In this document: positions 4,881-57,186 of the stretch, in pieces
Layout: every line of letters begins with the position of its first letter
Numbering within the stretch: position 1 is the stretch's first letter
Source of the DNA: Octopus vulgaris
Taxonomy: Eukaryota
Reading direction: 5' to 3'
Length of the DNA: 64,000 nucleotides
NCBI GenBank assembly: GCA_951406725.2
Contig: OX597821.1
Location: 15,934,001 to 15,998,000, forward strand
The notes under the pieces: model-generated
Seen by the model: the letters and a program-made list of their open reading frames with translations, nothing else
The model's database searches: none
Told to the model about the DNA's origin: nothing
Position numbers and translations under genes: made by a program

Positions 4881-5077
4881 ATCATTTTTTTAAAACAGTG
4901 AAACCGGTCAAGTGAATACACATCTTTTAAAATTGCATTTTCAAACATTCTTTCATATATATATATATAAGTGTAGTGTCTGTTAACTAAATATTTCCTT
5001 CTCGCTAGATCATTGGTAACAAAGAATTTTTCGATAAATATTTTTGCTACCCTAAGATTGTTTAATTAATGATTGAT

Positions 5078-5140
<63 letters not shown>

Positions 5141-5142
<2 letters not shown>

Positions 5143-5232
5143 TTCTACTCTAGGAACAAGGCCCGAACTTTTTGGTAAGGGGGCCAGTCGATCAGGGAAC
5201 GCAACTGGTACTTAATTTATTGACCCCGAAAT
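5141..5232 (-). mobile_element. SINE family 2, 3' fragment
   Basis: caactggtacttaatttattgaccccgaaa is the reverse complement of the family 2 core. Confidence 0.6.
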
Positions 5233-5325
5233 ACACATACACACACACGAACAAATATATATACATATATATTATATGTATATATACATATATAAAATAT
5301 ATATACATATATATAATATATATAC

Positions 5326-5408
<83 letters not shown>

Positions 5409-6486: not shown

Positions 6487-8048
<1,562 letters not shown>

Positions 8049-9224: not shown

Positions 9225-9226
9225 AC

Positions 9227-9244
9227 TGGTGTCAGAAGTGGGAT
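9227..9244 (+). promoter_or_regulatory. Primer-binding site complementary to the tRNA-Leu 3' end
   Basis: TGGTGTCAGAAGTGGGAT is the reverse complement of ATCCCACTTCTGACACCA (recalled tRNA-Leu(CAA) 3' end with CCA). Confidence 0.85.
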
Positions 9245-9252
9245 TGTCCTGA

Positions 9253-10480: not shown

Positions 10481-10742
10481 GTAGATTTCCCAGAAAATTA
10501 GTACTCGAAATTTAATACGAATACAGAGGTTCATGCTTTGTTATTTAAGAAACGAAGGATACAATCGTTTCAATCTACAATGTTGTGCTCAATTCAGAAA
10601 CACCAATGATTGGCCGAAAAGGTCCATTACAATGCCATTATGTAATGTACAAGCACTCCCACGCTTGTACATAGATATTATACATACGCACAAACGTATG
10701 GATAAATGAGTTGATATATACGTGCATGCTTTTATATATATG

Positions 10743-10803
<61 letters not shown>

Positions 10804-10834
10804 CTATATATATATGTATATCTATATATGTATA

Positions 10835-10889
<55 letters not shown>

Positions 10890-11316
10890 GTGGGTGTGTA
10901 GGTTCTACCTGAGATGTACCTGCTGGCATGGAGAGGAAGGTGCAGGCTGCCGTTTTGCACATCGGGGAACCTGCCGCAGAGACACGAAACAGATCAGAAA
11001 CAAACTAACAAAAGGAAAAGCGATGGACCACGCACCACCTGCCCCAAAACGGAGGTACGCAGATGTGGTGCGTGCCACAAACGGCCAACATGATGTTGTT
11101 GAAAGGGCAGCAGCTGAAAAAGAATCTTTTTTGTGCATGGCACAAAAGATTATACAGCAGCTAACCTGGTTTCATCAAACCCAAGCTCGCAGATGGGACT
11201 ACCCACAATATACAAGACCACCACAGCAAACAGATCAAGGTGGACACCGCCGGCAACAGCATACACCTCACCTCGATGCTCCTACTGAACATCAGAGGAC
11301 TGCAAACACTCAGTAA
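10890..11316 (+). pseudogene. LINE A ORF1 C-terminal remnant with CCCH zinc finger
   Basis: [22 protein letters not shown]...YADVVR...[13 protein letters not shown], homologous to LINE B ORF1. Confidence 0.8.
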
Positions 11317-14235: not shown

Positions 14236-14326
14236 GGTAAACCCGTGTAGCAAACCAAATGGCGGTGCCCCAGCATGGCCACAGCTCATTAGCTGAAACT
14301 GGAAAAATCAAAATCAAATCAAAATA

Positions 14327-14364
14327 GTATACATATATATATACATATATACATACATATATAC

Positions 14365-14395
<31 letters not shown>

Positions 14396-14722
14396 CATAT
14401 ATATACATATATATATACATATATATACATATATATATACATATATATACATATATATACATATATATACATATATATACATATATACATATATATATAC
14501 ATATATATATATATCTATATACGTATATATATATATATAAATATATATATATGTATATGTATATAAATATACATATATAAATATACATATATATATATAT
14601 ATATAAATATACATATATACATATAAATATACATATATATATATACATACATATATATATATATACATATATATATACATATACATATATATATATATAC
14701 ATATATATATACATATATATAT

Positions 14723-14777
<55 letters not shown>

Positions 14778-14835
14778 CATATATATACATGTATATATAT
14801 GATATATATATATATATACATGTTTATATATAGGA

Positions 14836-14888
<53 letters not shown>
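14327..14888. repeat. Impure (TA)n/TATACA tract directly 3' of LINE A
   Basis: Direct reading. Confidence 0.95.
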
Positions 14889-14890
<2 letters not shown>

Positions 14891-15722
14891 CATCGGCACT
14901 CATGTGTGCGCGTGTTTGTTTGACTTGCATGTGTGCACTCATATTATTGTTGTGATATAATCTAAAATTTACATGTCTGTCTTTATGGATGCGATTATGT
15001 GTTATATCACAATCTTGAGTTCCATCTACTTGAAATTGCTTTTGTTTCAAGCCTAATTTACTCTGCGATAAATATTTTCTCATTACCGTCCAATTTACAA
15101 CAAAGGTCGTCATTCTTTGAACATTAAAACAATTCTGACAAAATTACTCTATCATTAGATATGTTTTATTGTTCTCTGCACAGTTAAAGAAATCAGATTG
15201 AACATCACATATATAAGACACCTACTTATTTGTATGTACACTGATTGAACTACGATTTACTTATTCCAAATTTGTTATGCTTTATCATTTATAAATTATG
15301 ATATATTACAGAATCTGTATATATATATATTACAGAAATCCTACTGATCGAGATTTTCACGTTATATTAAAAAATTACACATTTACTTTTGCATTCAAAT
15401 ATTTTAAATTAAACTCATTATTTTCAATTTTGCATGTGTGTACACTTTTGTCTTTTATTTCTAATTACTATTGAGCATCTCTAATGGCCAATTATTTGGA
15501 GTAAGTGGTTTCATATGTTGCATACGTTTAGACACACAGTATCGCCATGAGTGTGAGAAAATGAAAATATGACAATTGTTTATGCGGTATTTATTTCTAG
15601 TGATTTGGTGCGCCTGAACGAGGACTTTTGAAGATAACCGTGGATGTAATAGGTGGAACACATGCATTTTCGACCTTGTGTTTATCTGACATGGAGTTCG
15701 ACAAATTATATCTTTATATGAC

Positions 15723-15801
15723 GACCTCACTGATGAGCTGCAGATGAATTGTGTACGTAAAATTGCATAATTTATTAACAGTGAAACAAATGTATGGGGT
15801 T
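15723..15801 (+). ncRNA. Type I hammerhead ribozyme with intact catalytic core
   Basis: Stem I GACCUCA/UGGGGUU, CUGAUGA (15730-36), long stem II (GCUG/CAGU plus 12-bp extension), GAAA (15783-86), short stem III, predicted GUA^ cleavage after 15794. Confidence 0.8.
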
Positions 15802-15964
15802 AATCTATATTTTTGTTAGTTTTCATTTGTCTTGCTCGCTTACGTTCATGGTGTGCTAAATTTTCTGGAGAACAATTCTTGGTGGTTGAGACTTATGCGG
15901 ATCTCTTTTTAGCGTAAGGGATTCCACATAGTGGTTCTCTCTCATATTTATGTATAAAATAATA

Positions 15965-16048
<84 letters not shown>

Positions 16049-16081
16049 GAGAGATACATATTTATATACATATACACACAA

Positions 16082-16133
<52 letters not shown>

Positions 16134-16142
16134 CACATGCAA

Positions 16143-16184
<42 letters not shown>

Positions 16185-16900
16185 ATACAAAAATTCATGC
16201 TATATACATACACACATGTATACAAATATGTTTATATAAATATATCTCTGTGATGTACAGAGTTAAAAAAAAATAAGAAATACAAAGAAAGATGATTAAT
16301 GTCAAATGTTCATTGATTAACGATTTTAAAACAAAATTTAAATAAATAGCAAATTATTGATAAATAAATAAAAACAAAAACTTTTGTAGACAGAATAAAA
16401 TAAATTACAAACCGTTCGATTTCCAAACTTCAAAGTAACCAAAATATAATGCTTTAATTGAATTTTCTCAGTGATATTAACAATATCACTTCTGACTAAA
16501 AACAAGGGAGAGCTCAGACCTATTAGATGGTACATGTTTAAACAATAGGTTGCAGTAGTTAATGATTTTGCTAATAGTTACTTATGAAGTTCGAAGTAGA
16601 GTAATAGATAGGTTTATAGGTTATTTCAAGCTATATAGACCTTGCAGTCTTTACCTCGCAATAGTAAACATAATCCGTTCCATGAGATAAGAGTATGTGT
16701 TTTATAATAGCTCATAAACAAAATGTAGAAATAGTCAATTGCAATACATTTTGTAGCCATGGAAACAGTAGTCTGAGATCAAGATCTTATAAAACATACA
16801 TATTTCCTAACATAGGTTAGAGGACTTTCTTTATAAAGGGCGGTTCCAGCCAGTGAAATGTACGCCACAAGATGTCGCTATGTTTACTTTGTTGATATAA

Positions 16901-17107
16901 ATTATTTTCATGTATTTCATATCACACCCTATCCTGTAATTTCTTTCATAGAAGGACGTTTAAGAATCATATGTTAATCCTGACAATGTAAGCCTTAAAA
17001 TGTTTTACTGTATTCCTATAAATAATTCGGAGTATTTATTCCTGTATATTGAATTAAAGTTTGCCCTGTATCGGGATACGGTATGATATGAAATAAATGA
17101 AAATAAT
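16901..17107. repeat. Small fold-back: ~38-bp imperfect inverted repeats with ~130-bp spacer
   Basis: attattttcatgtatttcatatcacaccctatcc vs ggatacggtatgatatgaaataaatgaaaataat. Confidence 0.7.
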
Positions 17108-17735
17108 GTCAGACAAGTCGGTGAACTTTTGAAATGACATATCACCGCAAATTCCACACGGTATAACTTTTAAGAACGAACAAAAATTTCTTCACATATC
17201 TGGACATGCGTTATTGTAATTTAAGACAACTACTGAATATTTTGATGCAGATATGTGACAATGAAAAGAAATAAAACTACACACACATTTATGTATTTAT
17301 ATAGGTTTCAAAAAGGCAATCTTAATATCCAACTAATTATGTGACAAATAGTTCCCGACCGCTATAGTCAGACGAGTCTCCTCAACCAAAGATAGAAGTA
17401 AGAGTGTTTTTTTATGTATCATCCATCCACATGGGTGGGTCTCTGAAGTCGAATACCGCAATATTCGCTTTACTAATGAAATATCCCTGTTAAGTTGGGT
17501 ATAAATATCGCCTTTGGACAATTATACTGCTTCTGTCAGCAATAGTTAATGCTTACCTACATACTCACATGCATTTGTGTGTGCATGTGTGTGTGTGTGT
17601 GTGACTGTATGTATGCATGCTTTTCCTAATTGATCTCTTAGGCACCACTAGTTAAATGCCTGTCTCAGCGTATAATCTTTGAACCTTGCAACATGCCCGG
17701 CCCAGCAGAATTGTACTTTCGATATTCTGCCATCA

Positions 17736-17825
17736 CTTTGTTCTTTTACTTGTTTCATTCATTGGACTGCAACCATGTTCAGACGCACCCTTGAAGGAGT
17801 TAGCCGAATAAATCGATCCCAGTTG
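17736..17825 (-). mobile_element. SINE family 1, 3' tail fragment
   Basis: tcttttacttgtttcattcattggactgcaaccatgttcagacgcacc is a diverged reverse complement of the tail. Confidence 0.6.
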
Positions 17826-18970
17826 TTGTGGTGTCAGTCCGTCTTTGCCTAAGTAAGATGTGATATCTATCAATTGCAAACACAACTGTATATTAGGCAC
17901 AAATTCCGCATACTTATGCGCTGATGTGGAGTAAAAACAGAATGTATACGACCATAAATACTGCCTCATAATTGCATGGTTATGGTCGCAATGTCAAGGT
18001 TCATGTTGGAAGCGTATTCTTCTTTACTTCGAGGTGACACTCGAGGTGCTTAGCAAGATATCACACTCGCACAAACTCGAAAAAAACAAACAAACAAAAA
18101 CACATGATAACATTGACTGCCCGTAAGGTTAAGAGTACAAAATTTTGTGGAGCCCTTAACAAATTACTTTATAAAACAAAGAGTAGATAGTTTCAGTGAT
18201 TGAAAAAGTGAGAGCTCGTTGTTGAAAGCAACGCAGAAGTATAGATCATCATATACTATCTATGACGCAAATATCTTCGCTTCAATGCATGTTATTTCGT
18301 ATAATCATTTGCAAATCATTTATTTTTGCAACCAAACAAGTTTGATATCTGTTTACAAAAATCTAATGCTATCAATGCCAAAGTTCACTTAAACGTATTC
18401 TAAATGCACTACATTTATTTCGGATATTAAATATTTTAGAAATGAAAAAAAAAATCGACGTAATTCAGTTCGTGTTCATTCTTCTACTTTCATGTGAGTA
18501 ATACTGATGAAATAAACTTTGACATTCTCACGCCAAAAAAAAAAAAGAAAAGAAAGAAATGATACTAGATGACTAAATATAACGGTGTGTAGTGAAAACA
18601 GACATTTGTTTATATTAGAGTAAGAATGAGAAAGTCAGACCAAAAGTGATAAAAGGGATTCGGCATGGAACAGGCAGAATTTCTTTCTGCAATCAATTAC
18701 TGCAGCAGCCAAGCTAAATTCAGGTATACATCATGGAACTAACATTTTAGGAAGAGATATTGTGTTGATGTATAAATCATAACAAAAGCAAATTGAATAT
18801 AGCAACAGCATTACACTAGATATTTTATTGGCTGCTGTGAATGCGTGTATACATACATACATACATACATAAATACATACATACACACACATATATATAT
18901 ATATATACACATACATACATACATACATACATACATACATACATACATACATACATACACACACATAAAT

Positions 18971-25666: not shown

Positions 25667-25912
25667 CATATATATACATATATATATATATACATATATA
25701 TATTTATACATATATATTTATACATATATACATATATATATATACATATATATATATATACATATATATACATATTTATTTATACATATACATATACATA
25801 TATATACATATATATACATATATATACATATATATACATATATATACACATACATATATATATATACACATACATATATATATATACACATACATATATA
25901 TATACACATACA

Positions 25913-25948
<36 letters not shown>

Positions 25949-26164
25949 CAAACATACATATATATATACACATACATACATATATATATACACATACATA
26001 CATATATATATATACACATACATACATATATATATACACATACATATATATATACACATACGTATATATATACACATACATATATATATATACATACATA
26101 TATATATATACATATATATATACATACATATATATATACACATACATATATACACATACATATA
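24636..26164. repeat. ~1.5 kb impure (TA)n tract with TTTATACA and TACACATACA variant blocks
   Basis: Direct reading; lies on the 3' side of LINE B, across the gap. Confidence 0.97.
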
Positions 26165-26264
26165 NNNNNNNNNNNNNNNNNNNNNNNNNNNNNNNNNNNN
26201 NNNNNNNNNNNNNNNNNNNNNNNNNNNNNNNNNNNNNNNNNNNNNNNNNNNNNNNNNNNNNNNN
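26165..26264. other. Assembly gap (100 N)
   Basis: N run; hides the 3' end of LINE B. Confidence 1.
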
Positions 26265-28461
26265 TTGTATATGGCATCCAGATCTTGTTGTAAAAGGTCA
26301 GCATCAGCTGGGTTTTTGATTGCCTGTGCTACCTTTGTGTCATCAGCATAGCTAGTGAGGGATGTTGTTTGTGCTACCAAGGGCATGTCAGAGAGCGCCA
26401 CCAAAAACAGCAAGGGTCCCAAGACTGTGCCCTGTGGCACCCCGCTTGCTATTGGTGTCTTTCCCGAGAGGGCTCCATTGGCTGCAACCATCTGGCTTCT
26501 GTCCTTCAGGAAGTCATGTATCCACTCACCTACTTTTCCTGTTATGCCGAGTCTGAGTAATTTGTGACATATCACTCCGTGGTCGACTTTGTCAAAGGCC
26601 TTCGCAAAGTCGAGATATACCACATCCACCTGTGAGCGATCCAGTAGTTGTTTCAGTACCCAGTCGTAGTGTTGTAACAGCTGCGTAAGGCAGCTTCTTC
26701 CTGGGCGAAAGCCATGCTGTGTGTCAGTGAGACGGTTAGTTTCTTCGAGGAACGTGATCAGTTTTTTTCTGATGATTCGTTCCATGACCTTACTTATGTG
26801 TGACGTCAGGGAGACTGGCCTGTAGTTTTTGGCCTCTGCTCTACTCCCTCCTTTGTGGATAGGGCATATGGTGCCTTCTTTTAGCGCCCTGGGCAGTTTA
26901 CCGTTAGCCAAGGAACCACTGAAGAGCTTCTTCAGTGGTCCCGCTAGGGCATGCCTGCATGTTTTTAGGAGGACTGCTGGGAATCCATCTGGTCCAGCAG
27001 CTGAGTTTATTCTCATTTCTTCTATGGCAGATATTACATCCCTCTCTGTTATGTCTATGTGGTCGATGGTTGTTGTTTGGTTTTGGAGTGTTGTGGCATC
27101 AAAGAAAACTTCTGGGTTTGTGATTTGCATGTGCCCCAGAGGGGATGTGAACACACTTTTATACTGTTCCTTTAGTATTTCACTTATCCCTTGGGGGTCC
27201 TCAGTTAGAGAGCCCTTTTTATCAAAGAGTGGGCCAATCTTGCAGTGTACCGAGGTGGTTTCTTTCGCAAATTTAAAGAAGGCTTTAGGGTTTGTTTTAA
27301 TATTCTCTATGGCCCTGGCTTCTCTCTCTGCCCTCTCCTTCTCATAGGAAAGTTTGAGTGCAGTTTCCGTTTCAAAAAGTTTCAGGTGGAGTCCCTCATT
27401 GTTTCTCTGCCGTGCATTCAGTTGCTTCGAGAGCTTAGCTCTTCGCCTCATAAGTATTTTCCTGTCTCTGGGAATAACGTTCCTATGCCCGCTGGCTTTT
27501 TCTCCGGGACAAACTTATGGCATATGTTCTGTATTGTTGTCATGAAATGTTGGAAATGTGTGTTGGTGTCTTGTGTGGTGATGAAGTCACTCCAGTCATG
27601 TTTTCGGATCTCTTCGTTGATCTTCTTCCAGTTTGCCTTATGGAAGTTTAGACTGGATAGGCCTGTGGTATTTTCTAATGGCTGCGTCTCAACTAACTCT
27701 CTCATACCATATATCATTACCTCTACTAAGTTGTGATCTGAGAGAATTGTTGGTGTTACCATTATGTTGTGGATGAGCATCGGGTTGCTTGTGAAACAGA
27801 GGTCCAAGACATTCTCACCTCTTGTTGGCCAAAGCACTGCTTGCTCCATGAAAAACTTGCGTGTGAGAGCCAACAAGGACTCTGTCTGTCTCTGTTCAAG
27901 TGATGTCATTCCAGGGAGGAGATGGCCATCTGGCCATTTGACTTTCGGAAGGTTAAAATCTCCCAGCAGTAGAATGGTGTTACCCTGGTCCAGTTTGTCC
28001 AGGACTTCTTCTATTCTTCTGAGGCTATCTTCAAACACTCCTTCATGACTAGGGGTGTCTGGTGGCCGATATGTGACACATATTACTATTTTCGGTTGTT
28101 TCATGTGTACTATCAGTGTGTCACAGACTGAGTTTGAGTGTGTCAACAGTACTATGGGTGTGACATCTTCACGGACGTACAGGGCAACCCCACCATGAGT
28201 TCTTTCCTTCCTGTCCGACCGAAAAACAGTATACTTCGGTATGTGTATTTCTGCATCTGCTATACTGCTTGACAGGTGCGTTTCAGTCAGCGCTATGCAT
28301 ATTGCATGGTTGCTTGTGCTCAAGTCCCTAAGGTAAGGAATTTTACCCATATTAGTGGGTTTCACCAGACCTCTGACATTCAGCAGAAGCACTGGTGAGA
28401 CACCCGGGGTGTCAATAAAGGCTGACGGTGTGGCACCTGGGCCGGCGTCAGCGGTGGCCAC
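26265..28461 (-). pseudogene. LINE B ORF2 (APE + RT), one frameshift near 27450
   Basis: LLNVRGL, ALTETHL, GDFN, LSDHN; NYRPVSLTS, YLDFAKAFD, GVPQGTVLGP, SYADD. Confidence 0.95.
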
Positions 28462-29314
28462 CCTGGGTCCCTTGATTGTGGTGGTCTTGAGTGCTGTTGT
28501 GAGTGCCCCTGGCTCTGAAGACGATGTATCCAGGCCAGTTGTCCCACAATTTTCTCTGCCATTTCCACAAAATTTCTTTGTTCTGCTGCCGCCGTCTGCA
28601 TTTCCTCTGCAAATGTGCGCCTTCTCCTTGTTGGGGCATTACGCACTATGTCTGCATATTTCTGGGGCAGCTTGTATTTGTTCTGGTTTTGGTTAAGGCA
28701 TTTTGGTCGAGTGGGTTTGATGCAATTTCCATAGGGCCTGGGATGAGCGAACCTGCATCCTTCCCCTGTTTCTCCATGCCAGCAGGTTCCATTCCGGAAG
28801 AATTTGCATGTTATCTGGGTTTTCTTGTCCCCAGTTCCTCTCTGTTTTTCTTCCTCCGTTGGACGGTTGTCCACTGGTTCCTTTCTGCATAGGTCTTTTC
28901 ATCCGGGTGGTTATTTTCTGTTTCCCCATCGCCGCCTATCTGTTGTTTGCCCTGCTTGCCTTCTTCGACTGTGGCAGTGGGCGTGTCATTTTTTGACACT
29001 CTGTGGTTGGTGTTTCCTGTTTCCATCTCTCTCTCTTTGTCTTTGTCCACCTTGAGGACTTGGCTTAGCAAAGCCATGTGTGGTGCAATGAGAGTGTAGG
29101 CCCTTTCGACTTCTCTTTTCTTCCTCTCTACTTGCGCCAACGTCCTCATAAAGCCATGGCTTTTCAGGGTCGCCGCTATGTTTTTAGTTGGTTGCGATCT
29201 GTCGGCCGAGCTCCATCCTCTGATGAAAACTTCCAGCTCTACTTTCGTCCAGTTACGCTGGCTTTTGTTGACGCCAGTGTTTGCATTCACCTCTAATTTT
29301 TGCATGTTGTCCAT
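28380..29314 (-). pseudogene. LINE B ORF1: Myb/SANT-like (trihelix) domain + CCCH zinc finger, split by a frameshift near 28815
   Basis: QRNWTKVELEVFIRGW...NIAATLKSHGFMRTLAQVERKKREVERAY; CKFFRNGTCWHGETGEGCRFAH. Confidence 0.8.
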
Positions 29315-30796: not shown

Positions 30797-31120
30797 GTGG
30801 ATTAACTGTTGAACTGGACGGACGTCTATTTGTTTCTCTCCCGAGTCAGTAGCAAGCTACACAGCTTCAAAACTAACTGACCTTAAATATATATATATTT
30901 GTAACCACGTGTTTGCCTACAAACCCGTAAGTACGTTTTCATTTAACTACAAATTGTTATATACACCTGTTTTTCTTTTAATATCCTCAAACAACCAAAT
31001 AATCAAAAACTCACACCCTTAAGAGAGAACATTTATATATATATACACTTCTTTAACTCCCAAGAAAGAATATATATATTTTCAAAAATCAAAAGGAAAA
31101 CAAACAAAAGAAAAACAAAC

Positions 31121-32242
31121 ATGACTAACTTGCAGGCCTGCAACAGACGAAATTGGTCTGATAACGAAATTGATGTTTTAATAAACACATGGCTCTCTCT
31201 TTCCCAAACAGAAAATCTAAATGTCTTGTGTTTGAATGAGATTGCCGAAAAAACATCACAAGTGGTCAACACACGATCCGTCAAACAGATTCGTAGCAAG
31301 TTGAAACATATCGAAGTATCTTTCAAACTGATAAGAGGCCATTATGAAAAGCTTCTACATATTTTCACAGTTCAAGAACAACAACAGCTAGAAAATCAGC
31401 AGCCACAACAACAACAACAACAGAATGAGCCACTCCTGGTTCCCAACACAATGGCTGACCCTGTCATCGGTCAGGCACAACAACAACAACAACAGCCACT
31501 GCAACAAGAACAACAACAGCCACTCCTCAACTCTAGCTTACTAGACGATTCACTAAATGCCAGTATCTTTTCACCGCTCTCACAGCAACCACCACAATTA
31601 TCATCATCATCATCACCACCGCTGCCACCATCGTCTTCTATCACCAAAAATACCAACAAAAAACCAAATAAGAAACCACTGCCCTCTTCCCCCACATCAC
31701 CACCTCAATACTACTGCAGTAACAAAAACTTAAAGAAACATAGGAAGCAGAATGCGCCCCCCACGGCACAAACAAGAAATCCCCAAATATGCCGCTATTC
31801 ACTGCGCCAGAGACTCTGCACAAATAGTGACTGCATCTTCACGCATCTACCCGGCACTAGACGCACTACTGGCCAAGGCCAAAGCACGCATCCCACAATA
31901 ACATCAACACCACCAAATAGTAAATCGAAATTCAAAACACACACAACTCGGAGTCCCAAAATCTGCCGGTATTCCCAACGTGAGAGAACATGTCTACTGA
32001 GTGACTGTCCCTTCACTCATCTTCCAGGGACCCGACGCACAAACAGAAACGGGGCCTCAAGCCAACACACAAACCTGAATAACAATAAAAATAGAAACAC
32101 ACCATGCTGCAGTAATGCTGGTCCAGTCTTTTCAGGAAGACACAAAAACAACAACAACAAAAGTGGAAACTACAACCCTATCCAACAGTGCAACCACACC
32201 TCCAGCCAAAAACTGCTCCCTAAGCAGGAAAATTCTTTTTAG
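31121..32242 (+). CDS. LINE C ORF1: Myb/SANT-like N-terminus, polyQ/S/P linker, two CCCH zinc fingers
   Basis: RRNWSDNEIDVLINTW...EIAEKTSQVVNTRSVKQIRSKLKHIEVSF; CRYSLRQRLCTNSDCIFTH and CRYSQRERTCLLSDCPFTH. Confidence 0.88.
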   Translation: MTNLQACNRRNWSDNEIDVLINTWLSLSQTENLNVLCLNEIAEKTSQVVNTRSVKQIRSKLKHIEVSFKLIRGHYEKLLHIFTVQEQQQLENQQPQQQQQQNEPLLVPNTMADPVIGQAQQQQQQPLQQEQQQPLLNSSLLDDSLNASIFSPLSQQPPQLSSSSSPPLPPSSSITKNTNKKPNKKPLPSSPTSPPQYYCSNKNLKKHRKQNAPPTAQTRNPQICRYSLRQRLCTNSDCIFTHLPGTRRTTGQGQSTHPTITSTPPNSKSKFKTHTTRSPKICRYSQRERTCLLSDCPFTHLPGTRRTNRNGASSQHTNLNNNKNRNTPCCSNAGPVFSGRHKNNNNKSGNYNPIQQCNHTSSQKLLPKQENSF

Positions 32243-35200
32243 CCATGTTGAACATGGCAAAAGAGATACACAAAAACATTCTAGCCATCACTCAACACCA
32301 TCCTATGCTATTACCCCAGTGCACCAATTCCCCACATTGCTGCCACTAACACACACAAAAAATCCAAGCCCCCTGCAACAGTCAAAACCAGCCACTACAC
32401 TAACCTCCACATTCCTACTCAATGCACAAGGTGTCAGCCCTTCCATCAATGCACAAAAATGGAAGGTCCAATTCATTGAAGACTGGGTTGGCAACCATTC
32501 ACACCACATCCCTTTCTTCATTCTCACTGAGACCCACCTTGACAACTCCCACTTGGAAGCCGAAGTGAGAGTGAAGAATTTCACAACCATCCGCGCGGAT
32601 CGTATCGGCAGGAGGAAGGGTGGAACTGCCATTTTCCTGCATGATTCATTTACGGCAGATGGAAATAGTATATTCTCCAACGGCTACTGTGAATCAGTCA
32701 CCGTGCACAACAAAGCCAATGATCTGACAGTAATTGGGCTCTATAGGCCGCCCCAAACACCCATACTGTGCTTTAAAGAATGCCTCAACAGCATTAAGTG
32801 CTTTATTCAACAGTGCCATTCTAGCAACATACTCATGATGGGAGACTTCAATCTACCCTGTGTTGACTGGACTACAAACTGTTTGAAACCAAGCACTCCC
32901 GCCTCAACCGCTGACAAAGAAGCAGCAGAGTCACTTTTCGACTTTACGAATGAGTTTTTCTTGTCCCAACTTGTCCTTGCACCAACAAGACATCAGAACA
33001 TTTTGGACCTAGTGTTTAGTAACCACACTAACACTATACATAACGTTACAGTGGAAAAAACCCTTCTTTCAGACCATGACATGGTTCTCTGTAACATGAA
33101 ATTCCACCAGCCGAAAGCTAATCCTAGTGACCTTCCTCCAGCCCACCCATTTGACAACATGGATCTCCATAAAGCCAACTGGGATGCAATCAGGAACGAG
33201 CTATCAAATGTTGACTGGTCCTTTACACATACACACATCTCCACCAACCATAAAACATCTTGGCAGATCTTTGTAGACACCGTCACAGACATATGTGCAA
33301 AACACTCCCCACCAAGACCTGTGAACAAAAAGTGCAGAATCCCCCAAAACAGAAAAACCATTATCAGAAAAATAAAAAGAACAAACAAAAAAATTAACAA
33401 ACTAAAGTACTGCCAACAGCAACACACACATTCGACGGCTATCGCACTGCTTGAATCCAAAAAATATAACCTCCAACAATGCATGAAGTCCCTCATCAAT
33501 AACCAAAGATCAGCTGAGGAGAAGTGGGCCATTGAAAAAATCAAACTCAACCCCAAAGTGTTCTTTTCATTTGCGAGGAAACGCAGGGTCACTGTCTCCA
33601 CTGTAGGCCCTCTAATTGACGAAACTGGCACTCTCCAAGATAATGCCAAATCCATGGCCGAGATACTGCAGAAACAATACTGCTCTGTTTTCAGCAATCC
33701 TGATATGGCCGATCTGGGCTGTATCAGTGATGTCAACCCCCAACACACTATATCGGACATAACGTTTAGTGCCCCTGATGTCTTAGCGGCGATAAACGAA
33801 ATAAAACACAATTCAGCAGTAGGCCCCGATAGGTTCCCTGCTTGTGTCCTGAAGGTGTGTCGACACCAACTTGCATCTCCCCTTGCTAATCTGTGGAGAA
33901 ACTCACTGGATGCTGGCTATATTCCAAAAAACCTTCTGTCCCAGTCTGTTGTCCCAGTTTTCAAAAAGGGAAACAAGTCCCTTGCAGTGAATTACCGTCC
34001 GATCTCACTCACCTCTCATATCATCAAGGTATTTGAGAGGGTGGTGAGATCTCAAATAACCCAATTTCTGGAAAGCAACAGACGGCTGATCTCCAACCAA
34101 CATGGGTTCCGTAATGGAAGGGACTGCCTAACGCAGCTCCTGCATCACTTTGAGGACATTTTGAGAGCTTTGGGAGAGGGCTCCAACACCGATGTCATCT
34201 ACCTTGATTTCAGTAAGGCCTTCGACAGGGTCGATCACAAGATCCTATTGAAAAAACTATCCAACATTGGTGTCTCTGGAAAGTTACTGAAATGGATTAA
34301 GTGTTTCCTGACAGACAGATCTCAACATGTTGTAGTTGAAGGGGTAAAATCAAGCCCAGCCAAAGTCAGTAGTGGCGTTCCGCAAGGCACTGTGCTGGGC
34401 CCACTTCTTTTCATCATTTACATTAATGACATTAATGACATCATCAAGCACAGCAACATAAAAATCTTTGCAGATGACTCCAAGCTACAGAAGGTCATAA
34501 ATGAGGCGAGTGACCGGACATGCCTTCAGTCAGATCTACTGGCTGTTATCCAATGGGCAGAAAAAAACAATATGCTGCTGAACGAGGATAAATTTGAGCT
34601 AATCCACTTTGGAAAAGAGGATGCCCTGAAACTCCCATACTCCCTTCCTTCAGGTGAAACTCTCGCGGCGTCCAACAACATCAGAGACTTGGGAGTAATT
34701 GTGGACAACAACGTAAGCTGGGCCACTCATATAAACACCAAAGTTGACATGGCCCGCAGAATGTGTTCCTGGATTCTCAGAACTTTCCAGTCGAGAGATA
34801 TCCACACCATTATCCTTCTCTTCTCCACTTTTGCCCGACCCCACCTTGAATACTGTTGTCCACTGTGGTCTCCCCACACAATACAAGGTATCAAAAAAGT
34901 CGAAGCACCTCAAAGGGCAATCACAAAAAAGATAGATGGCATGACAGGCCTCGACTATTGGGGTCGACTAGAAAAGCTAAAACTCTATTCTCTCCAACGT
35001 CGTCGTGAGCGCTACATCATCTGCATGATGTGGAAAATATTCCATCAGCATTGCCCAAATGATGTTGGCATCACCTTTAAGGTACATCCAAGGCTTGGGC
35101 CCCGTGCCATCCGCCCAAAACAAAAATCGCACTCTCATCTCATAACAACAATACGGCACAATTATTTCACCTCAATTGGCCCCGCTCTCTTTAACATTAC

Positions 35201-35354
35201 ACCAAAACACATTAAAACAGAAACTGACCCTATAGGGTTCAAGAAGTCTTTGGACAGATTCCTTCAAGAAATCCCGGATAAACCCCCTACACCCGGATAT
35301 GTCTCTGTAAACAATAACTCTCTACTTGAGTGGGCCATAGTGCCCAAATTCTGA
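32115..35354 (+). CDS. LINE C ORF2: AP endonuclease + reverse transcriptase (true start uncertain)
   Basis: 1079-aa open frame; LLNAQG, LTETHL, GDFN, ILDLVF, SDHD; NYRPISLTS, QHGFR, YLDFSKAFDRV, GVPQGTVLGP, IFADD, LYSLQRRRERY. Confidence 0.97.
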   Translation: MLVQSFQEDTKTTTTKVETTTLSNSATTPPAKNCSLSRKILFSHVEHGKRDTQKHSSHHSTPSYAITPVHQFPTLLPLTHTKNPSPLQQSKPATTLTSTFLLNAQGVSPSINAQKWKVQFIEDWVGNHSHHIPFFILTETHLDNSHLEAEVRVKNFTTIRADRIGRRKGGTAIFLHDSFTADGNSIFSNGYCESVTVHNKANDLTVIGLYRPPQTPILCFKECLNSIKCFIQQCHSSNILMMGDFNLPCVDWTTNCLKPSTPASTADKEAAESLFDFTNEFFLSQLVLAPTRHQNILDLVFSNHTNTIHNVTVEKTLLSDHDMVLCNMKFHQPKANPSDLPPAHPFDNMDLHKANWDAIRNELSNVDWSFTHTHISTNHKTSWQIFVDTVTDICAKHSPPRPVNKKCRIPQNRKTIIRKIKRTNKKINKLKYCQQQHTHSTAIALLESKKYNLQQCMKSLINNQRSAEEKWAIEKIKLNPKVFFSFARKRRVTVSTVGPLIDETGTLQDNAKSMAEILQKQYCSVFSNPDMADLGCISDVNPQHTISDITFSAPDVLAAINEIKHNSAVGPDRFPACVLKVCRHQLASPLANLWRNSLDAGYIPKNLLSQSVVPVFKKGNKSLAVNYRPISLTSHIIKVFERVVRSQITQFLESNRRLISNQHGFRNGRDCLTQLLHHFEDILRALGEGSNTDVIYLDFSKAFDRVDHKILLKKLSNIGVSGKLLKWIKCFLTDRSQHVVVEGVKSSPAKVSSGVPQGTVLGPLLFIIYINDINDIIKHSNIKIFADDSKLQKVINEASDRTCLQSDLLAVIQWAEKNNMLLNEDKFELIHFGKEDALKLPYSLPSGETLAASNNIRDLGVIVDNNVSWATHINTKVDMARRMCSWILRTFQSRDIHTIILLFSTFARPHLEYCCPLWSPHTIQGIKKVEAPQRAITKKIDGMTGLDYWGRLEKLKLYSLQRRRERYIICMMWKIFHQHCPNDVGITFKVHPRLGPRAIRPKQKSHSHLITTIRHNYFTSIGPALFNITPKHIKTETDPIGFKKSLDRFLQEIPDKPPTPGYVSVNNNSLLEWAIVPKF

Positions 35355-36135: not shown

Positions 36136-37203
36136 ACGCACATGCGCAGATGCATGCATGGAGACGTGATAAAATATTCCGCATTATCACTACTTGACAT
36201 TGTGCTCGGTCACAATACGTGACAGCCATGCAAGTTATGCAAATCCATACCGTTTTAGATGAATGTACCGCTAATCACCTGTTTCTGGCCGATTAACAAA
36301 ATATCGATCAAGATACTGATTATAGGATGTGGATGAGGAAGAAGTGATATGGAAGTCAGAGATATAAATTATAAACAGCAGGTTATCAAGTCAACACAAA
36401 TTCACTCAAACATTGAGATTATAGGGACATATTATCCTAGTTATTCCCGACGTTAAATCTGTTGTAAACAGCTATAGTCACAGAGCAATGACAGGCGAGG
36501 AAAAATAGTTTATTGCTCATACACCATATAGGAGGAGATACAAAGCTGTAAGCGCAAAAATGTAAAATGAGTTGGCAATATCCTACTATATACTTTGAGA
36601 ATAAGGCCTTTAATAGGGTAATGAAGAAAAGTTTAAAAATAATAATGAGACAAAAATAAGATGAGAGGCATGTGCTTGAGACAAGAAAGGATAAAATAAA
36701 GCTTATAATTATTGTCAGAGAGGCTTGGAAGACTAACAATTGAACCAAATAAAGTGATAGTTTACGTGACAAAATATTAAATGAAGGATTTTCTAGATAT
36801 AGACGTGTTTACATACACTCATTACCTTTAATGCCAAAGTCAACAGGAAAAGTAATGAGGCTACAGATTTCATATCTTAATGCAAAATTTTCGCTACAAG
36901 ATCCAGAGCAACGGTTCAGTAAATACATTAGGACGGTCAATTAGATTTGAATTACATTTGATCTCTAGCGTACAAAGCATAAATTTCAACTCTTGCAATC
37001 TCCAAAGCACAGAGAAACAATGTGTATGGTTGAACACGATGAGCAATAATTAATATATTATATATTGAAGTCCCACTAAATTTCAGTAAATGAAATACTG
37101 AATACTAAATTAGGAAGTAGTAATCACATGATCAAATATTTATTTCCTTATCTACCTTTATATATATACATACATACGTATATATATATATATATATATA
37201 TAG

Positions 37204-37394
37204 AACATGTGACAATTATTCGGTTGCCATGATAAAACTCCGAGTTTTGGATGCCGAGGTGGAAAACCACGCCGCCATCTCATCAGGGACTTTTTTCTGA
37301 TGAGCGGATAGCTGAAGAGATGGCGGCGTGGCTTTCCCCTTCGGCATCCAAAACTCGGAGTTTGATCATGGCTACCGAATAATTGTCACATGTT
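37204..37394. repeat. 83-bp-arm palindrome (25-bp spacer) with hammerhead-like motifs in both arms, between TA tracts
   Basis: Arms 37204-37286 and 37312-37394 differ at 6 positions; CUGA(U/A)GA...AAAA CUCGGAG UU. Confidence 0.85.
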
Positions 37395-37460
37395 ACATTT
37401 ACAAATAAATTCATCTATTTACATAATATCGAGGTCTCTTTCACTCTTTTGTTGTGTTAC

Positions 37461-48520: not shown

Positions 48521-50893
48521 GCAGCAACCGATATCAAAATGCTCTTGTGCTTGAGGCATTAGATTTTTTTAGTGTTTGGGTGTGTTTTTTTAGATAGGGA
48601 AATAAAATATTTACCAGAATTACAGTACTTATTTTTTCAAAAATATGTAACAATCTTTAAAATACTGGTCTGAAGTAGACTATAAGAAGGATATTCTTTT
48701 ACCAATGGTTATAACAGGACTGAGGGCCCAAAGTACTTTCAAAATTTAAATAATGAATATTTTGTCCACAAAATTTCTAAAAGAAGGCACATTCAGCATA
48801 AGATTATCTAAGAAGAGAGGCTTCTTATAGGATGGACGAAAACTCCGTTTGTCCTCGCTAAAATTCTTCTCCTGTTCTTTGTTATTCCCGTTGCAATATT
48901 TAAAGTCGGACGTTTCTAAACGGAATTCGCTGAAAGACCTGAGCTACAAAATTTTGTAGCAATATTAAATCTCCATCATACGCGCCTTTATAATTAAATA
49001 ACAAGTGCTATGTAACCTTAAACCGATACAAAGTGATGGAATATTCACTTTTGGAACACGTTTGATTATACTTGTGTTCGATCAATGGTGAACAACATCA
49101 ACTAATCTCTATATTTCCTGATTAAAAGAACACTTCAGTAAATATTGTCGGCAGGTTCAATGAATCTAAATGTTACGAAAGTTTTATCAAGTTTAAATAC
49201 ATATAGATTAAGAATATATATACCTATACATATACATATATATATATATATATATATATGTGATAAAAAGTTTTTAGAATGTTGGATGATTATATATATA
49301 TGTTTTATTATTTACATTCCATTTACACTTTCAGCGCTTTCTTCCGTTATCGGATTTATATATATATATATATATATATATGGTTGTTCATCTTTTAGTC
49401 TACTGAGAAAAAGTTGCATGAAAATTCGATTTATGCATTTGAATCGGTATTTAATTAAATTGGCAATTAATTTAATATTCATATACCAAACAGATTTTCC
49501 TTTTCAGATTTCACTGCAAATTATTATTAGTTGCTGACATGTTATGTACTAGATCTAAAATGTAGGTCAATCCTTACCATTTTGGGATTTTGTTTTGCTT
49601 TCGTAATCGACAGAAGATATCCGTAATGATGGTAAATCCTAACACTTGCCGTAATAAAGATCATGTTGTCAATGGAAAATACGATATTGTTGGGATAACG
49701 TGTGTAATTAACTGGGTTTCGAGTTGTTGAAGGAGACAAAATTTAGAGAGTGCCTTTCTCAACTGTTTCCAATCTGCTTGAAAATTTTGAGTTTCATTTC
49801 GGATATTGATGGGTTGTATCTACAAGAATATCATGGACAGGGGTGAATCAATGGAAATGGGCATACGGGATAAATAAAAAATTAAAGCATTTCTAACAGT
49901 TGAAAGATTATCAACGAGTATCCACTAAAAGATAACACTTAACATTAGAGATGCATAAAGAAATGAAAAAAACAAATAACTATCTGCGAATTGCAGTGAT
50001 ATATGTTATAAATCTGTAAATGAATATGAACTTGAATAAAGGAGGATTAAGATAAACACTCGAACGATACGCTTGAGTGTTTTTCCATTGATGTGTAAAT
50101 AAGAGCTCAGAAGCAAGAGTTTCTAAAACAGCATATCTCATTCGCATTTTCGAATCAGCTCTCACCATTACGCCATATTTGACAGTTGTTATAATAATCC
50201 CGGAATTAACTGTGCATGTAATAATCTATTGTTAGGTAAATTACTAGACTCTAGTACTATCATGCACCAGTAAAACTCGAATCATACTCGTTCGTTACTG
50301 AATAAATCAGACGTCCTTCCGGTTTACCTACGAGGCTGTGAAGTGTGTTTTGGACACCAGTATGGTAAGAAATAAAGCGTAAAACCTCTAACAAAACCTC
50401 AACTTCTAGCCGCAGTCAAACAAGAAGCATTTCCTTTCAGGTTCCCATCTTACTGAAATACACAGCAGGGATTTTAACTGAATGAAGCAAAGTGTTGGGA
50501 TAAGTGCAAAAATGCAAATGTAGCTCTGGCGCCAGTAACCAACAGATTTACTAATGTAATGTGATGTTACAATATCGGTAATGGAAGTAAATATTTCCTG
50601 CAGCCGAACGAATGAAATGACAAATACACTGAACACAAACATTAACATATTGAGTAAGAATATACAGTTGTATTTATATGTAGAGTTATACATACTTAAA
50701 CGTATATAATTAGTGTAATACAATGATCTACTTTCAAATTAATCTGAGAGGTGCTAAGCCTCTTTTGACTATCAATTCAATTAGGTTTCTTTGAATGATG
50801 TTCATATCCTGGCATATTCTAATCGATAGATTATTTCCTTGAACTTGGGATTCTCATATTATATTGACATCAACCTGCTCATGATGAAAGAAA

Positions 50894-51183
50894 TTGTGGC
50901 CGTTACCAGCGCCGCCTCGACTGGCTTCTGTGCCGGTGGCATATAAAAAGCGCCATCCAAACGTGGCCGATGCCAGCTCCGCCTTGGCTGGCTTCCGTGC
51001 CGGTGGCACGTTAAAAGCACCCACTACACTCGTGGAGTGGCTGGTGTTAGGAAGGGCATCCAGCTGTAGAAACTCTGCCAGATCAGACTGGAGCCTGGTG
51101 CAGCCCCTGGCTTCCCAGACCCCGGTCGAACCGTCCAACCCGTGCTAGCGCGGAAAACGGACGTTAAACGATAATGATGATGA
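50894..51183 (+). mobile_element. SINE or LINE 3' part with Meta-like domain, ~67-bp tandem duplication and (TGA)n tail
   Basis: Two gtggccg..ccag..ctggctt..gtgccggtggca units; ggtgttaggaagggcatccagctgtagaaac (recalled Meta-domain-like); ends ggacgttaaacgataatgatgatga. Confidence 0.7.
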
Positions 51184-51682
51184 ATGTTTTCAAAAGTTGC
51201 TTGTAAGAATAGTGTGCATCTTATTTTTAATCATACAGTAAATATTTTGAGATTACGGCAAAATAATTTCATACATATTTTTATTTATATTCATTGTAAA
51301 AAAAACACGGTAATGCAGTTGAACTTACAGACATCTAATTACCTGGCAATATAACATTGTATTCTCAAATCTATATTTATTTAAATTAATTCTCAAATCA
51401 CTTTGGTTTTAATGTATGTGCGAATGTCAGCTATGTACAGCGGTATGAAAGCAATGAAAGAATATAACTATTATAAGTATATATTCATTATCAGAACTTA
51501 TAGATCCTACAAGGGATTAAGTAAAATTAACATGGCTACTGTATATTCTGTTAAGAACGACGTATATTGAGATAGTTTCACAAAGAAATGGGTGATTATT
51601 CAGAGGTTTCGAGCAAACCGCTTCGACGAAGAAAAAAAATGTTTAAATGTGTGTTTCTCTGCTTTCGAAATAGCTATTCCTA

Positions 51683-51755
51683 AATATTTCGGCATCTAGG
51701 GTGCCTTCCACAGGTTCAAAATTACATGTCAGCTAGATGCCGAAATATTGTTCAA
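51683..51755. repeat. 17-bp inverted repeat made of two opposed partial hammerhead motifs
   Basis: aatatttcggcatctag (51683-99) / ctagatgccgaaatatt (51733-49). Confidence 0.75.
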
Positions 51756-51799
51756 CAAATTTCACATGATATGGCACTCTTCTATTTATTTGTTAATAA

Positions 51800-52923
51800 T
51801 AATAGTAATAATATATAAATATACATAAAACCAGAGTTTTAGAGACGGATAAATCTTGTAAATCAATATTTATTCTACGAATATGCCTATAGTTGCTCGA
51901 AAGAAGGTACTGGTAGTATATATTACTTTTCATATATTTATGATTACGCAAAGGAAATATATATAATTTATATATAATGACAATATATAATAACTCCTCT
52001 CATTTATTTATTGTAATTGATATAAAGATTAATCAAAGTAACTAACAAATAATAGACCTGAATTGCAAAGTTTATCTTAGGGAAAACTCAGTAAATTAAA
52101 ATAAATAAAAAACATGGGTGTACGATAATTATAATCTATATTATTTCTTAGATAAAGATATAATCAACTGTAAATAAAAAATATTGTGTACCTAAAAATG
52201 TTTCCCTCATGTCTAAAATATAGCTACTTTATTTATAAATATATAAAATTTGACATACAAGGATAACCTAAACTTTGACATACAAAATAAACTGAGCAAT
52301 TTGGTATTTATTCTAGGAATAATCTTTATGTAAATATGAAATAATTAGATTACTGTAGTTCTTATATATAATTATGTATTTTTGAATAATCGTAAATATA
52401 TCTATTAACAAACTAAGTTCAATAATTTTAATAATTTGTATAATATTGTATACTTTAGAGCTTCTATACATATTGCAATACTCAAATTTTGTTACTTCTG
52501 AAATTTAGATATATATTTAGACATATATTTCTTATTTATAGTATATTATCTCTTTAACTTTAATACAGATTATAATTATCGTACATCCATGTTTTTGTTT
52601 TAATTTACGGAGTTCTACCTTCGATAAACCACCTAAATAAGGGCCATTATTTGCTAGTAACTTTGAATAATCTTTATATCAAAATGAATAAATATATGAG
52701 AGGTGTTATTATATATTATCATTATGTATAATTTATATATTTTTAATGAATAATCATAGATATATGAAAAGTAGAATATATGAATAAATAGTTTGTTGAT
52801 ATACTAGAAATACGTTCTTTCGAACATCTATTGTCATATTTATAGAATAAATATTGATTTACATGATTTATCCTCTCTAAAAGTAAGTAAACCTCTGATA
52901 TTTTATTTATTTATATATTTAGA

Positions 52924-52925
<2 letters not shown>
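51800..52925. repeat. Old fold-back element with ~390-bp diverged inverted arms
   Basis: aacatgggtgtacgataattataatct vs agattataattatcgtacatccatgtt; gtaaatcaatatttattcta vs tagaataaatattgatttac. Confidence 0.8.
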
Positions 52926-52954
<29 letters not shown>

Positions 52955-53540
52955 GCGTTTGCACAGCTTCTAACGCTGGAGATGTACTACAGTGTCAACT
53001 GTTCACTACCAGTGAACTAAGGTAACACCTCTTATTTTTCGAGCATCTTCCGGAGTATACGAGTGGTTCCTAGCAGTGCAGTTTTCTGCAAGTGCTTCAC
53101 CCTTATTGTTCCATGTACCCCTCGAGATTTTTGCTCATTGTTCCCAGGGCTCCAACAATTATTGGTACTACTGTTACCTTTTTCTTCGACCACAACTGCT
53201 TAACTTCCCCAGCTAACCTCTCATAGCTCTCGACTTTTCTTTCTTCCTTATCGCATACCTTGTTGTCAGCTGGGCATGCTATATCTATGATCCATCACAG
53301 TTTGTTTCCTTTCCCATTTAAGACTATGTCTGTCTTCCTATTCTCTGGCTTATGGTCGCACTAAATCATAAAATCCCATAGGATCTTTGAATTTTTATTT
53401 TCGACGATGTCTTCGGGTTTGTGGACGTAAAAATCTTTACTCTGTCAAATCCATACTGGTTGCAGAGTGTCCAATGGACATGATTGGCTATATTATAGTA
53501 GCGTCTCTTATATTACTTCTCGGCTAGTGGCGTACATGTA
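52925..53540 (-). mobile_element. Dong/R4-type LINE 3' end (RLE domain + 3' UTR) ending in (TAA)n
   Basis: Minus strand: KILWDFMI*CDH...WIIDIACPADNKVCDKEERKVESYERLAGEVKQLWSKKKVTVVPIIVGALG...LQKTALLGTTRILRKMLEK*; (TAA)n at 52925-52954. Confidence 0.85.
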
Positions 53541-53669
53541 TTTCAAATGCAAATGTTCACGCTTCTAAACACATCTTGAATCAATATTACGCAATCTGGC
53601 ATTCGTTTTATATGGAATTTCGTCCGTTTTTTTAACTAAGGCCCTGAAGAGATTTCTATGCATAGATAT

Positions 53670-53772
53670 GGGCGACTAGTGTTCTTCTATAAACAACCTT
53701 GCCCGGACTTGTGCCTCGAAGGGTAACTTTCTAGGTGCAATCCCATGGTCAGTCATGACCGAAGGGGGTCTG
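53670..53772 (+). mobile_element. Short interspersed-repeat 3' fragment
   Basis: GC-rich aaacaaccttgcccggacttgtgcctcg...catgaccgaagggggtc, recalled as a cephalopod SINE tail; single copy here. Confidence 0.35.
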
Positions 53773-55152: not shown

Positions 55153-57186
55153 ATTGTCTATACATTAAGGATATGATCATTTAGCTACACCATTTCGGAT
55201 TATGTCGTCGGCGACTAAATCATCAACGTCTAGAGTGAACTAGTACTACAGAATCATTGTGAATAACAGATAAAACCAGCTTATGGTAACACTCAATAAT
55301 CACAGTATTTGCTTTGTTTTAGTATATTTTACAAACGGCGCATGACACCTGCATGATATTGTACTGACCCTGTCTTTTTTATGAATACCTTAGAACTCTT
55401 CATTGCATGTTAATATATATGGTCGCATTAGGTTGTCAAGTATCATTAGATTATCGTTTAGGTGGGTCAAAAGTAGCCGTTTTGCGCTTAACAAGCAATA
55501 TCAATCGGGAGCAAAGCAGCGGCAGCGCAAGTGATACCCAAGGTGTTGTTGTCCTAGAGGTGGTTTATCTTTTCTTCATGCAGACCGTATCCTTACTGCT
55601 TATACCTTATGAAATTGGTAGTTACAACCTATACAGTATTTATGTGATCATAATTATTGTCAACGTATTATATTAAAAATAACATTATACGTAGATATAT
55701 TATTAATTTCTTCTAGTATAAATTCTGTCTTCTTTGTGATTTACTGAATATTTTTAAATGGCATGGAATAAATAAACGCATATACACTAAAACAAGGAAT
55801 TATAAAGAATAGCTGTATTTTCTCTGTTATTTTATTTAATAAATTTACGAACACTCATAAATTACATGCAACATATTATATTACAGTAAATTACTGCATA
55901 AGATATACAAAAAACATTCGTATGTCCAGCTATAATTCATATTTATAGTTTGATATCAATATCTCCCATTATTTTAAGACAATGACATATCCTACTGCTT
56001 GTGAATTTATACATTAATGTTTATATCTGCTCACTAGTATGAACAACAATTATTGAATGTAAAGGAGATACATTAGCTGAATATGTATAAGTATATATCT
56101 AGAAATATTTTGGCTTCAGTAAATATATCTCATACTACGAACCATGTGAATATAGAAGTTTATATCTGCCTCATGAGTGTAATTTGATAATTTCAGTTTA
56201 GGAACAAATCAAAAGAGATTGGTAATAATAGTACCCCAGATAATAAAATAGATTGTTGTTTCCTGTGTAAAAATATTTTTGTCTTCGCTTAGATAAAGAT
56301 CATTTATATTGTAGCTTCGAAACAAAGAAACGTTCCTCTTAATTACACTGAAGGAACCATCACACCATTGAAATCTAAAATTTATTAGATGGATAATGGC
56401 GGATCAATTTAAACTACAGAGAACAGATTCAGCCAAAAACACTGCCTACGCCCATGGACAGACGGAGAGGAGTTATTGTAAACCATTGGCCAAGTACTCT
56501 ATAACAATATCACATTCCACTTAACATTTACAGTAAAAAAAAACAATTTGTAGAATTTTTACATTGAGACCTATATGAAAACAGTTTATATTTTTATTGC
56601 TATATCTACATTAGAATACACTTTAAGCGGCGACATAATAACAAAATCTATATTTCGATATAAAAATATGGTAACAAATAACAATAATAATTATGTTCTA
56701 AAATTTAAACAAAATTCTAAAAAGAATACGAAAAGTATACAAAATAAAATAGACGCATGTATCGTATGTGAGATTCATTTCTCACATACGATATATGCAA
56801 TTGTTTAACTCTGGAAACATTTGCGCTTCAAACATTGAACTTGGCGGCTGGAATTTCGAAATATACTACTACCCAAAGCATGAGAATTAAGTTTAATGTT
56901 TTTAAAATACTCTTATTTTCTTACTCTACAACAAAACGGATGCTGCAGAACTTTCTACTAAATTATTTCGGTATACATTGTTAATAGAGTCATGAGGAAA
57001 CTATTATAGCTAATCACTTCGATAAATACATTATATAAGTTTTATATCAGGGACATCATCAGAAACTATTTAACTAATACATTGCAATTTATTGTTGAAG
57101 GGAAAATAATTTCTTTCCGTTTCATCATCGCACTGTCTGCATACTTGTGAATAACATATATCATATATATGTGTGTGGGTGAGTGA

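Follow-up and report, generated by a model that had tools for sequence, protein, structure and literature searches.

A split minimal-type hammerhead motif with uridine at core position 6 in a miniature head-to-head insertion, probably of Penelope-like origin, from Octopus vulgaris

Penelope-like elements (PLEs) carry a minimal hammerhead ribozyme, defined by Cervera and de la Pena (2014; PMC4209133) with the consensus CUGANGAH, an extra base between positions 9 and 10.1, a G10.1-C11.1 pair and a palindromic 15.2-16.2 segment. According to that paper, the monomer is inactive, the multimer has low activity, and pairs on opposite strands occur; it lists the GAAA-UAUU form for PLEs of C. remanei and the coelacanth. 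The general PLE layout is described as an inverted 5'-truncated copy plus a tail, and the ribozymes may merely ride along (PMC8557442). For Adineta Pen2a, pLTRs are described that are inverted head to head, overlap by 15 bp and meet at palindromic junctions (PMC3846280). For the Anolis Poseidon element PAc, in vitro work reports that both strands are cut at AT-rich sites and extended, that ends lie at internal RT starts, and that ribozyme cleavage is dispensable, mutants having inserted normally; by the same account, no Anolis RNA-seq reads begin or end at the ribozyme site (Frangieh et al., 2024; PMC11167929). Core position 6 is described as naturally altered in the A6C hammerhead of phage Bcep176, which has low activity in Mg2+ and retains activity in Mn2+ (PMC3088659; PMC7151607). 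The A6C rate given for one ribozyme in Mg2+ is 3.6e-6 per min at 0.3 mM (PMC7151607).

We analyzed a stretch of 64,000 nucleotides (the window), which is AT-rich, repeat-rich and animal-like and contains several LINE-type RT frames. Window positions 51683-51791, 109 bp in total, consist of two pieces of one dispersed repeat, each truncated at its 5' end, that meet head to head. The inverted arm (51683-51732, minus strand) contains the stem I 5' strand, the core CUGUGGA with an extra A, stem II, GAAA and UAUU, and it ends at position 17. The direct arm (51733-51791, plus strand) starts within loop II and runs through UGCC GAAA UAUU and the stem I 3' strand, GUUCAA, into a further 36 bases of the family. 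Relative to the predicted cut, the family positions covered are -50 to 0 in the inverted arm and -17 to +42 in the direct arm. The opposed arms overlap by 17 nt, and the inverted repeat is exactly 17 bp, extendable neither inward nor outward. The repeat family extends upstream of 51732 and goes on past 51791, there with letters that differ from the window.

On the minus strand, UUGAAC (51719-51714) is followed by the core box C3-A9, CUGUGGA (51713-51707), the extra A (51706), stem II (GGCA, 51705-51702, and UGCC, 51694-51691; 4 bp with a 7-nt loop), GAAA (51690-51687) and UAUU (51686-51683), beyond which unrelated flank begins. On the plus strand, CTAGATGCCGAAATATT (51733-51749) is followed by GTTCAA (51750-51755), which complements the stem I 5' strand. 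An earlier note on this DNA had described a split, inverted motif with these letters, the plus-strand copy supplying GUUCAA, and re-reading both strands bore it out. Its boundary at 51683 also stands, but not its arm lengths: the inverted arm extends as far as 51732, and on the direct side the family match runs to 51791. The stem III palindrome had been given as AAUAUU; it is palindromic, but in standard numbering it comprises AUAU (15.1-16.1), and AAUAUU adds A14 and U17. The core letters were correctly given; among them, the departure from the conserved A at position 6 (51710), which is U, went unflagged.

The core box at the locus thus reads CUGUGGA and not CUGANGA, whereas the GAAA box, the A15.1-U16.1 pair and the NUH site are present in both arms (GAAA UAU U), and stem II is closed by G10.1-C11.1 with one unpaired base ahead (A plus GGCA/UGCC). 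Stem I on one RNA is found in contiguous copies of the family; at the locus, its two strands sit on opposite DNA strands. With A6 missing, the locus is not classed as a canonical hammerhead. It is inert, because neither strand encodes a whole ribozyme and a transcript would form a predicted 17-bp hairpin. AUAU is palindromic, yet the predicted dimer fold gave no catalytic arrangement; folding programs do not model the core. For a contiguous copy, the predicted partner of the extended stem I 5' strand (51714-51728, minus strand) is 51750-51768, the pairing being divided into three segments of 5 bp. This modelled 15-bp stem I has a duplex energy of -8.3 kcal/mol, and 2.9% of 2000 shuffles were as good. 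In the same model, U6 would permit weak 3-bp mispairing with the stem III UAU, which A6 would not. A second loose motif near window position 2493 was rejected, as it has no stem I.

Assembled contigs from four runs, one per organism label (24 listed), were mapped to 51400-51900 at 80% likeness; 51786-51900 was left out of this mapping as repeat, which concealed the 3' ends of the window family. The contigs matched numbered 142, 164, 86 and 126 per run. Depth over the left flank was flat and single-copy (13.9, 47.5, 5.2 and 10.5), and depth over the arms was about 890 to 18600 in most bins, with the ribozyme-core and direct-arm bins about 170 to 640 times the flank; summed depth is not copy number and is taken as an order of hundreds only. 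The repeat family is therefore high-copy and dispersed. Judging by the loose ends at 51683, 51684 and 51721, the family apparently comprises two or more subfamilies that are distinct on either side of stem I, the 3' side being about 10 nt shorter and the 5' side different.

Copies with a contiguous motif, which the earlier note had expected among homologues, are present in all four runs. The 5' ribozyme half lies directly before 51732, ahead of the direct arm, in 30 contigs (9, 9, 6 and 6), with an agreement of 0.62-0.95. These copies also decide whether the motif is a chance hairpin merely resembling a hammerhead. Such a reading could draw on the single core mismatch and on Rfam, which gave no hammerhead match at gathering for the locus, where the motif is split, and three weak snoRNA matches (E 3-8). 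However, a core of this kind (CUG[A/U]NGA, a 4-bp stem II closed by G-C, GAAA) was found at a single place in the window and in just one of 100 windows resampled by dinucleotides, and the contiguous copies in four runs refute chance resemblance, which has next to no probability left.

Position 6 is U in the loose-end consensus of all four runs, a call made on the consensus and not on a per-copy count. The loose letters are free to differ from the window, so U6 is a family trait rather than decay at the locus. The table of differences between contigs and window has no entries within the repeat, even for the common C17, and is given no weight as to whether U6 is fixed. Family-specific U6 patterns gave no loci in metagenome, GTDB and viral contigs. 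A literature search, mainly of freely readable papers and with some supplements outside it, turned up no description of a hammerhead with U6 in nature. What is new here, on its letters, is the U6 core of the family, a putative ribozyme core.

Further copies in the window family repeat the arrangement of the locus. X5 record 19 is another head-to-head copy; 11 nt separate its arms, each of which extends to 51785 or beyond. In X1 record 2, an inverted and a direct copy are again combined, beside a flank unlike that of the locus. Direct and inverted 5'-truncated end repeats, by which endonuclease-bearing (EN+) PLEs are recognized, are thus found at the locus and in both of these records. A few contigs carry same-orientation joints that go back 37, 38 and 41 bases.

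A general pattern of the motif was searched in metagenome contigs and gave at least 120 loci, with 124 motif matches among those listed. These loci belong to look-alike families and not to the window's own. Position 6 was A in 122 of the 124 and U in two, one a mutant copy of an A6 family and the other a probable chance match. A stem I of 4 bp or more, which the pattern does not demand, was present in 64 of the 124 listed. [quoted passage not shown] In viral contigs, the general pattern gave 11 loci, none of the window family. One and the same hammerhead-like core, with a GGCAG/CTGCC stem, recurs in five viral contigs (L004, L005, L007, L008 and L011).

Of the 120 related loci listed, 18 have inverted partner copies; among these 18 are L107 and L118, which have no mapping partners, and L110, where the DNA edge lies exactly at the site. 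In the remaining 15, the inverted arm reaches at least 40 nt beyond the site, and typically one arm ends near +55-65 while its counterpart continues to about +135-175. Head-to-head junctions often fall inside the ribozyme (L012, L014, L034, L043 and L082). Two regular 3' ends, an optional tail on one arm, are thus seen in relatives. In the PLE families L012-L131 these ends lie about 90 nt apart (about +60 and +150), and head-to-head pairs usually use one of each; this spacing exceeds the usually described 30-40-bp tail. The Penelope-type head-to-head inversion proposed in the earlier note is accordingly supported, as it recurs in the window family, in these related loci and in published pLTR pairs. 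The layout is already known, and the locus is a scrap of a known type.

No open reading frame is linked to the window family, and this would suit a repeat other than a PLE, such as a retrozyme, SINE or satellite-type repeat with a hammerhead-like motif that was inverted by another route. The same-orientation repeats on single contigs would likewise suit tandem units. However, the hammerheads described for animal retrozymes are canonical type I motifs, minimal ones going with PLEs (PMC7229834), PLE repeats are in any case the source of animal retrozymes according to a preprint (10.64898/2026.07.22.740005), and the head-to-head layout is presented as a PLE hallmark (PMC8557442; PMC3846280). Non-LTR retrozymes consist of tandem 150-400-nt units with canonical type I motifs; the window contains no second unit, and its motif is minimal. 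A non-PLE origin is therefore very doubtful. The PLE protein of L046 gave no tblastn match in the window at E up to 1, and the GIY-YIG domain was absent from the 20 window ORFs scanned (90 listed). The lack of a PLE ORF in the window is expected of arms of 50-60 nt. The locus works like a PLE end repeat and probably derives from one, a PLE identity given by shape and not by a linked gene.

The outer junction (51682/51683) coincides with the predicted cleavage site, after U17. It is spanned by an orthologous contig in all four runs, so the left boundary is real and shared among them. The earlier note took this boundary for the fossil of a self-cleaved RNA end, that is, a PLE-type insertion in which the inverted arm was copied from the 5' cleavage product and ends where the RNA was cut. 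The family match does halt exactly after U17, and the arms are almost adjacent pieces, as expected from one RNA cut or primed twice. PLE hammerheads can also cleave, weakly as multimers (PMC4209133) or with protein help (PMC11167929). Homologous copies speak against it. In 103 listed contigs (30, 36, 19 and 18 per run), the loose letters past 51683/51684 have a consensus that continues the family into the stem I 3' strand, with an agreement of 0.71-0.80 despite an apparent mix of indel subfamilies; this is a consensus of the listed contigs, with 61 further loose-end rows outside the listing, and not a count of single contigs. Position 17 is C in 86 of the 103 and U in 17, and the continuation holds for both groups. 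Depth downstream of the site compared with the core was 8950 vs. 3010, 18634 vs. 11656, 1015 vs. 1025 and 2292 vs. 1802. With the consensus continuing past the site and downstream depth at about core level or higher, a large class of copies ending at the site is unlikely; a share of a few percent may be compatible with the data.

If cleaved ends were copied regularly, breakpoints would track the site, and in related families they do not. Two censuses were made, both in families other than the window's and at loci selected for an intact core. The first started from the 124 matches listed and left out 27 without three partners, eight that were edge-limited and three duplicates. None of its 86 usable matches ended at +3 or before, while 40 ended at +46-80 and 31 at +126-199. 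The second, which included copies without an intact core and retained duplicates, found none of 103 ending within -4 to +3 and one of 94 starting within -3 to +4. This one is a related copy in L087 (minus strand, about 832-891) that starts 1-2 bases from the predicted cut site.

Published results point the same way as the censuses, since Anolis RNA-seq reads are reported without starts or ends at the site and inactive ribozymes inserted normally (PMC11167929). The altered position 6 also counts against a fossil cleaved end: the family core carries U6, other changes at this position reduce cleavage, and A6C lowers it in Mg2+. Moreover, by our estimate, chance would already place one end within 1-2 bases of the site in a family that numbers hundreds of copies. 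Copying of a self-cleaved template is therefore quite unlikely, and the coincidence of arm boundary and predicted cut site is most likely accidental. The single coincidence at this locus is nevertheless real and may reflect a rare cleaved-end event. A stronger form, in which the U6 core of a widespread PLE-type family still cleaves (for example with Mn2+ or an element protein) and the locus records reverse transcription on a cut end, is improbable.

The sequence around the junctions bears on how the arms were joined. The single-copy left flank (51666-51682, plus strand) contains CGAAATA, seven letters identical to the ribozyme box, and a 10-nt palindrome, AATAGCTATT, that adjoins the junction. 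Since the AAUAUU box is able to pair with target DNA that is AT-rich, the actual outer join may lie a few bases inward. The head-to-head inversion junction (51732/51733) has one shared G and an imperfect 4-nt microhomology, with loose ends before and behind 51732; among the contigs listed for the four runs, no orthologous contig spans it. On the right, an unrelated foldback element of about 1.15 kb (51794-52943) begins 2 nt past the direct arm and conceals the original right flank. No target-site duplication was found out to 54200, where there were just short chance matches and the right flank is interrupted by other elements.

The missing target-site duplication, the CGAAATA copy and palindrome right at the left junction, and the position of both switch points in short palindromic sequence would all agree with a later host replication or repair rearrangement of one contiguous copy. 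In this case, a template switch at the AATATT palindrome would be followed by copying back to -50 and a forward switch at -17, with the upstream part lost. Against this, head-to-head pairs recur in the window family and in the 18 related loci, where the ribozyme often contains the junction; structures of this sort are thus already produced by a process that the element drives. The left junction is also common to all four runs, and no unrearranged orthologue is present among the contigs listed. A host rearrangement is thus unlikely.

We favor, with a probability of roughly 0.6, a miniature head-to-head insertion of an EN+ PLE or a non-autonomous derivative that comprises only the ribozyme-bearing end repeat. 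Following known PLE biochemistry, an RT/GIY-YIG protein would nick both strands of AT-rich DNA, and two cDNAs, one per strand, would be primed at internal sites of the RNA. One cDNA would start at or beyond +42. The other would start in the AAUAUU box, whose AU-rich letters readily pair with the end of an AT-rich target and which incidentally contains the cut site. Both would halt after 50-60 nt and then be joined through short microhomology. Because AT-rich ends would naturally be primed at this box, an arm that ends in it would need no cleavage. Some findings stand against this insertion model. The inverted arms of relatives end at two regular family ends (about +50-75 and +130-175), so that an end at 0 is atypical; and neither a PLE ORF, in the window or linked to the window family, nor a target-site duplication was found.

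Several other elements are present in the window. The foldback element beside the direct arm is AT-rich, and its long, diverged inverted arms (51794-52253 and 52482-52943) are 74% alike over 429 aligned bases. Abutting it is the (TAA)n tail of a decayed non-LTR retrotransposon 3' end (52955-53690, minus strand), the translation of which resembles a restriction-like endonuclease C-terminus and which we take to be of the R4/Dong type. An apparently intact LINE (30947-35354, plus strand) has a 431-codon frame with a weak Myb/SANT-like match and an uninterrupted second frame of 1091 codons with endonuclease and RT. LINE-type copies at 25718-28638 (minus strand) and 12052-14235 (plus strand) are broken by a frame change and a stop, respectively. 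At 37180-37418, a MITE-like hairpin of about 240 bp with 107-nt arms (86% complementary) and a 25-nt loop lies between TA microsatellites. A GC-richer, SINE-like stretch at 50890-51180 contains a direct repeat of 59 nt (83%) along with a short tail of ATG repeats, and a perfect 14-bp hairpin with a 6-nt loop is found at 56760-56793.

The locus alone adds little; its value lies in the U6 family and in the census of ends in related families. A high-copy family with U6 is a natural test of the role of the ribozyme. If the U6 core does not cleave, amplification without an active ribozyme would be shown in nature, and if it does, the core would be a new active one. Cleavage by U6 together with priming on cut ends would give direct evidence, from the genome, of PLE hammerheads at work in vivo, and would mean that they occasionally set insertion boundaries. 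The related-family census, with none of 103 copies ending at the site and two regular ends downstream, supports RT start sites, and not the ribozyme, as what sets PLE 3' ends.

LINE-1 5' inversions arise by twin priming. Like the window locus, they have an inverted upstream piece beside a downstream piece, a short duplication and microhomology at the junction; the window locus differs in having no poly(A) tail and in its template, a PLE-type end repeat. Closer in sequence are the minimal hammerheads described in metazoan PLE pseudo-LTRs (PMC4209133), which share with the window family the extra base between 9 and 10.1, G10.1-C11.1, the AUAU palindrome and the lack of a real stem III. Also shared are the NUH site (AUC in most copies there, AUU at the locus), a stem I of 5-6 bp, U-rich and AU-rich flanks, many dispersed truncated copies and opposite-strand pairs. 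In contrast, the published core is CUGANGA, with A6 in every supplement row examined, and that of the window family is CUGUGGA. The window stem II, 4 bp with a 7-nt loop, is at the short end of the range described, and its motif is split between strands.

Adineta Pen2a pairs, as described in PMC3846280 and PMC8557442, match the layout of the locus. They too have a 5'-truncated inverted copy directly upstream of the direct copy, with which it overlaps by a short stretch (15 bp in Pen2a, 17 bp at the locus), and one arm that is shorter at its 3' end. The window locus differs in its size of 109 bp, in having no ORF and no target-site duplication found, and in a short arm that ends at the ribozyme site and not at a regular family end. 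PAc is the source of the mechanism assumed for the window, with both strands cut and internal RT starts (PMC11167929); its core is active with protein help, however, and its ends are reported well downstream of the cut. The Bcep176 A6C hammerhead shares with the window family a natural change at core position 6 (PMC3088659; PMC7151607). There the base is C and not U, the ribozyme is a single one from a phage whose activity has been measured, and the window family is a high-copy animal repeat.
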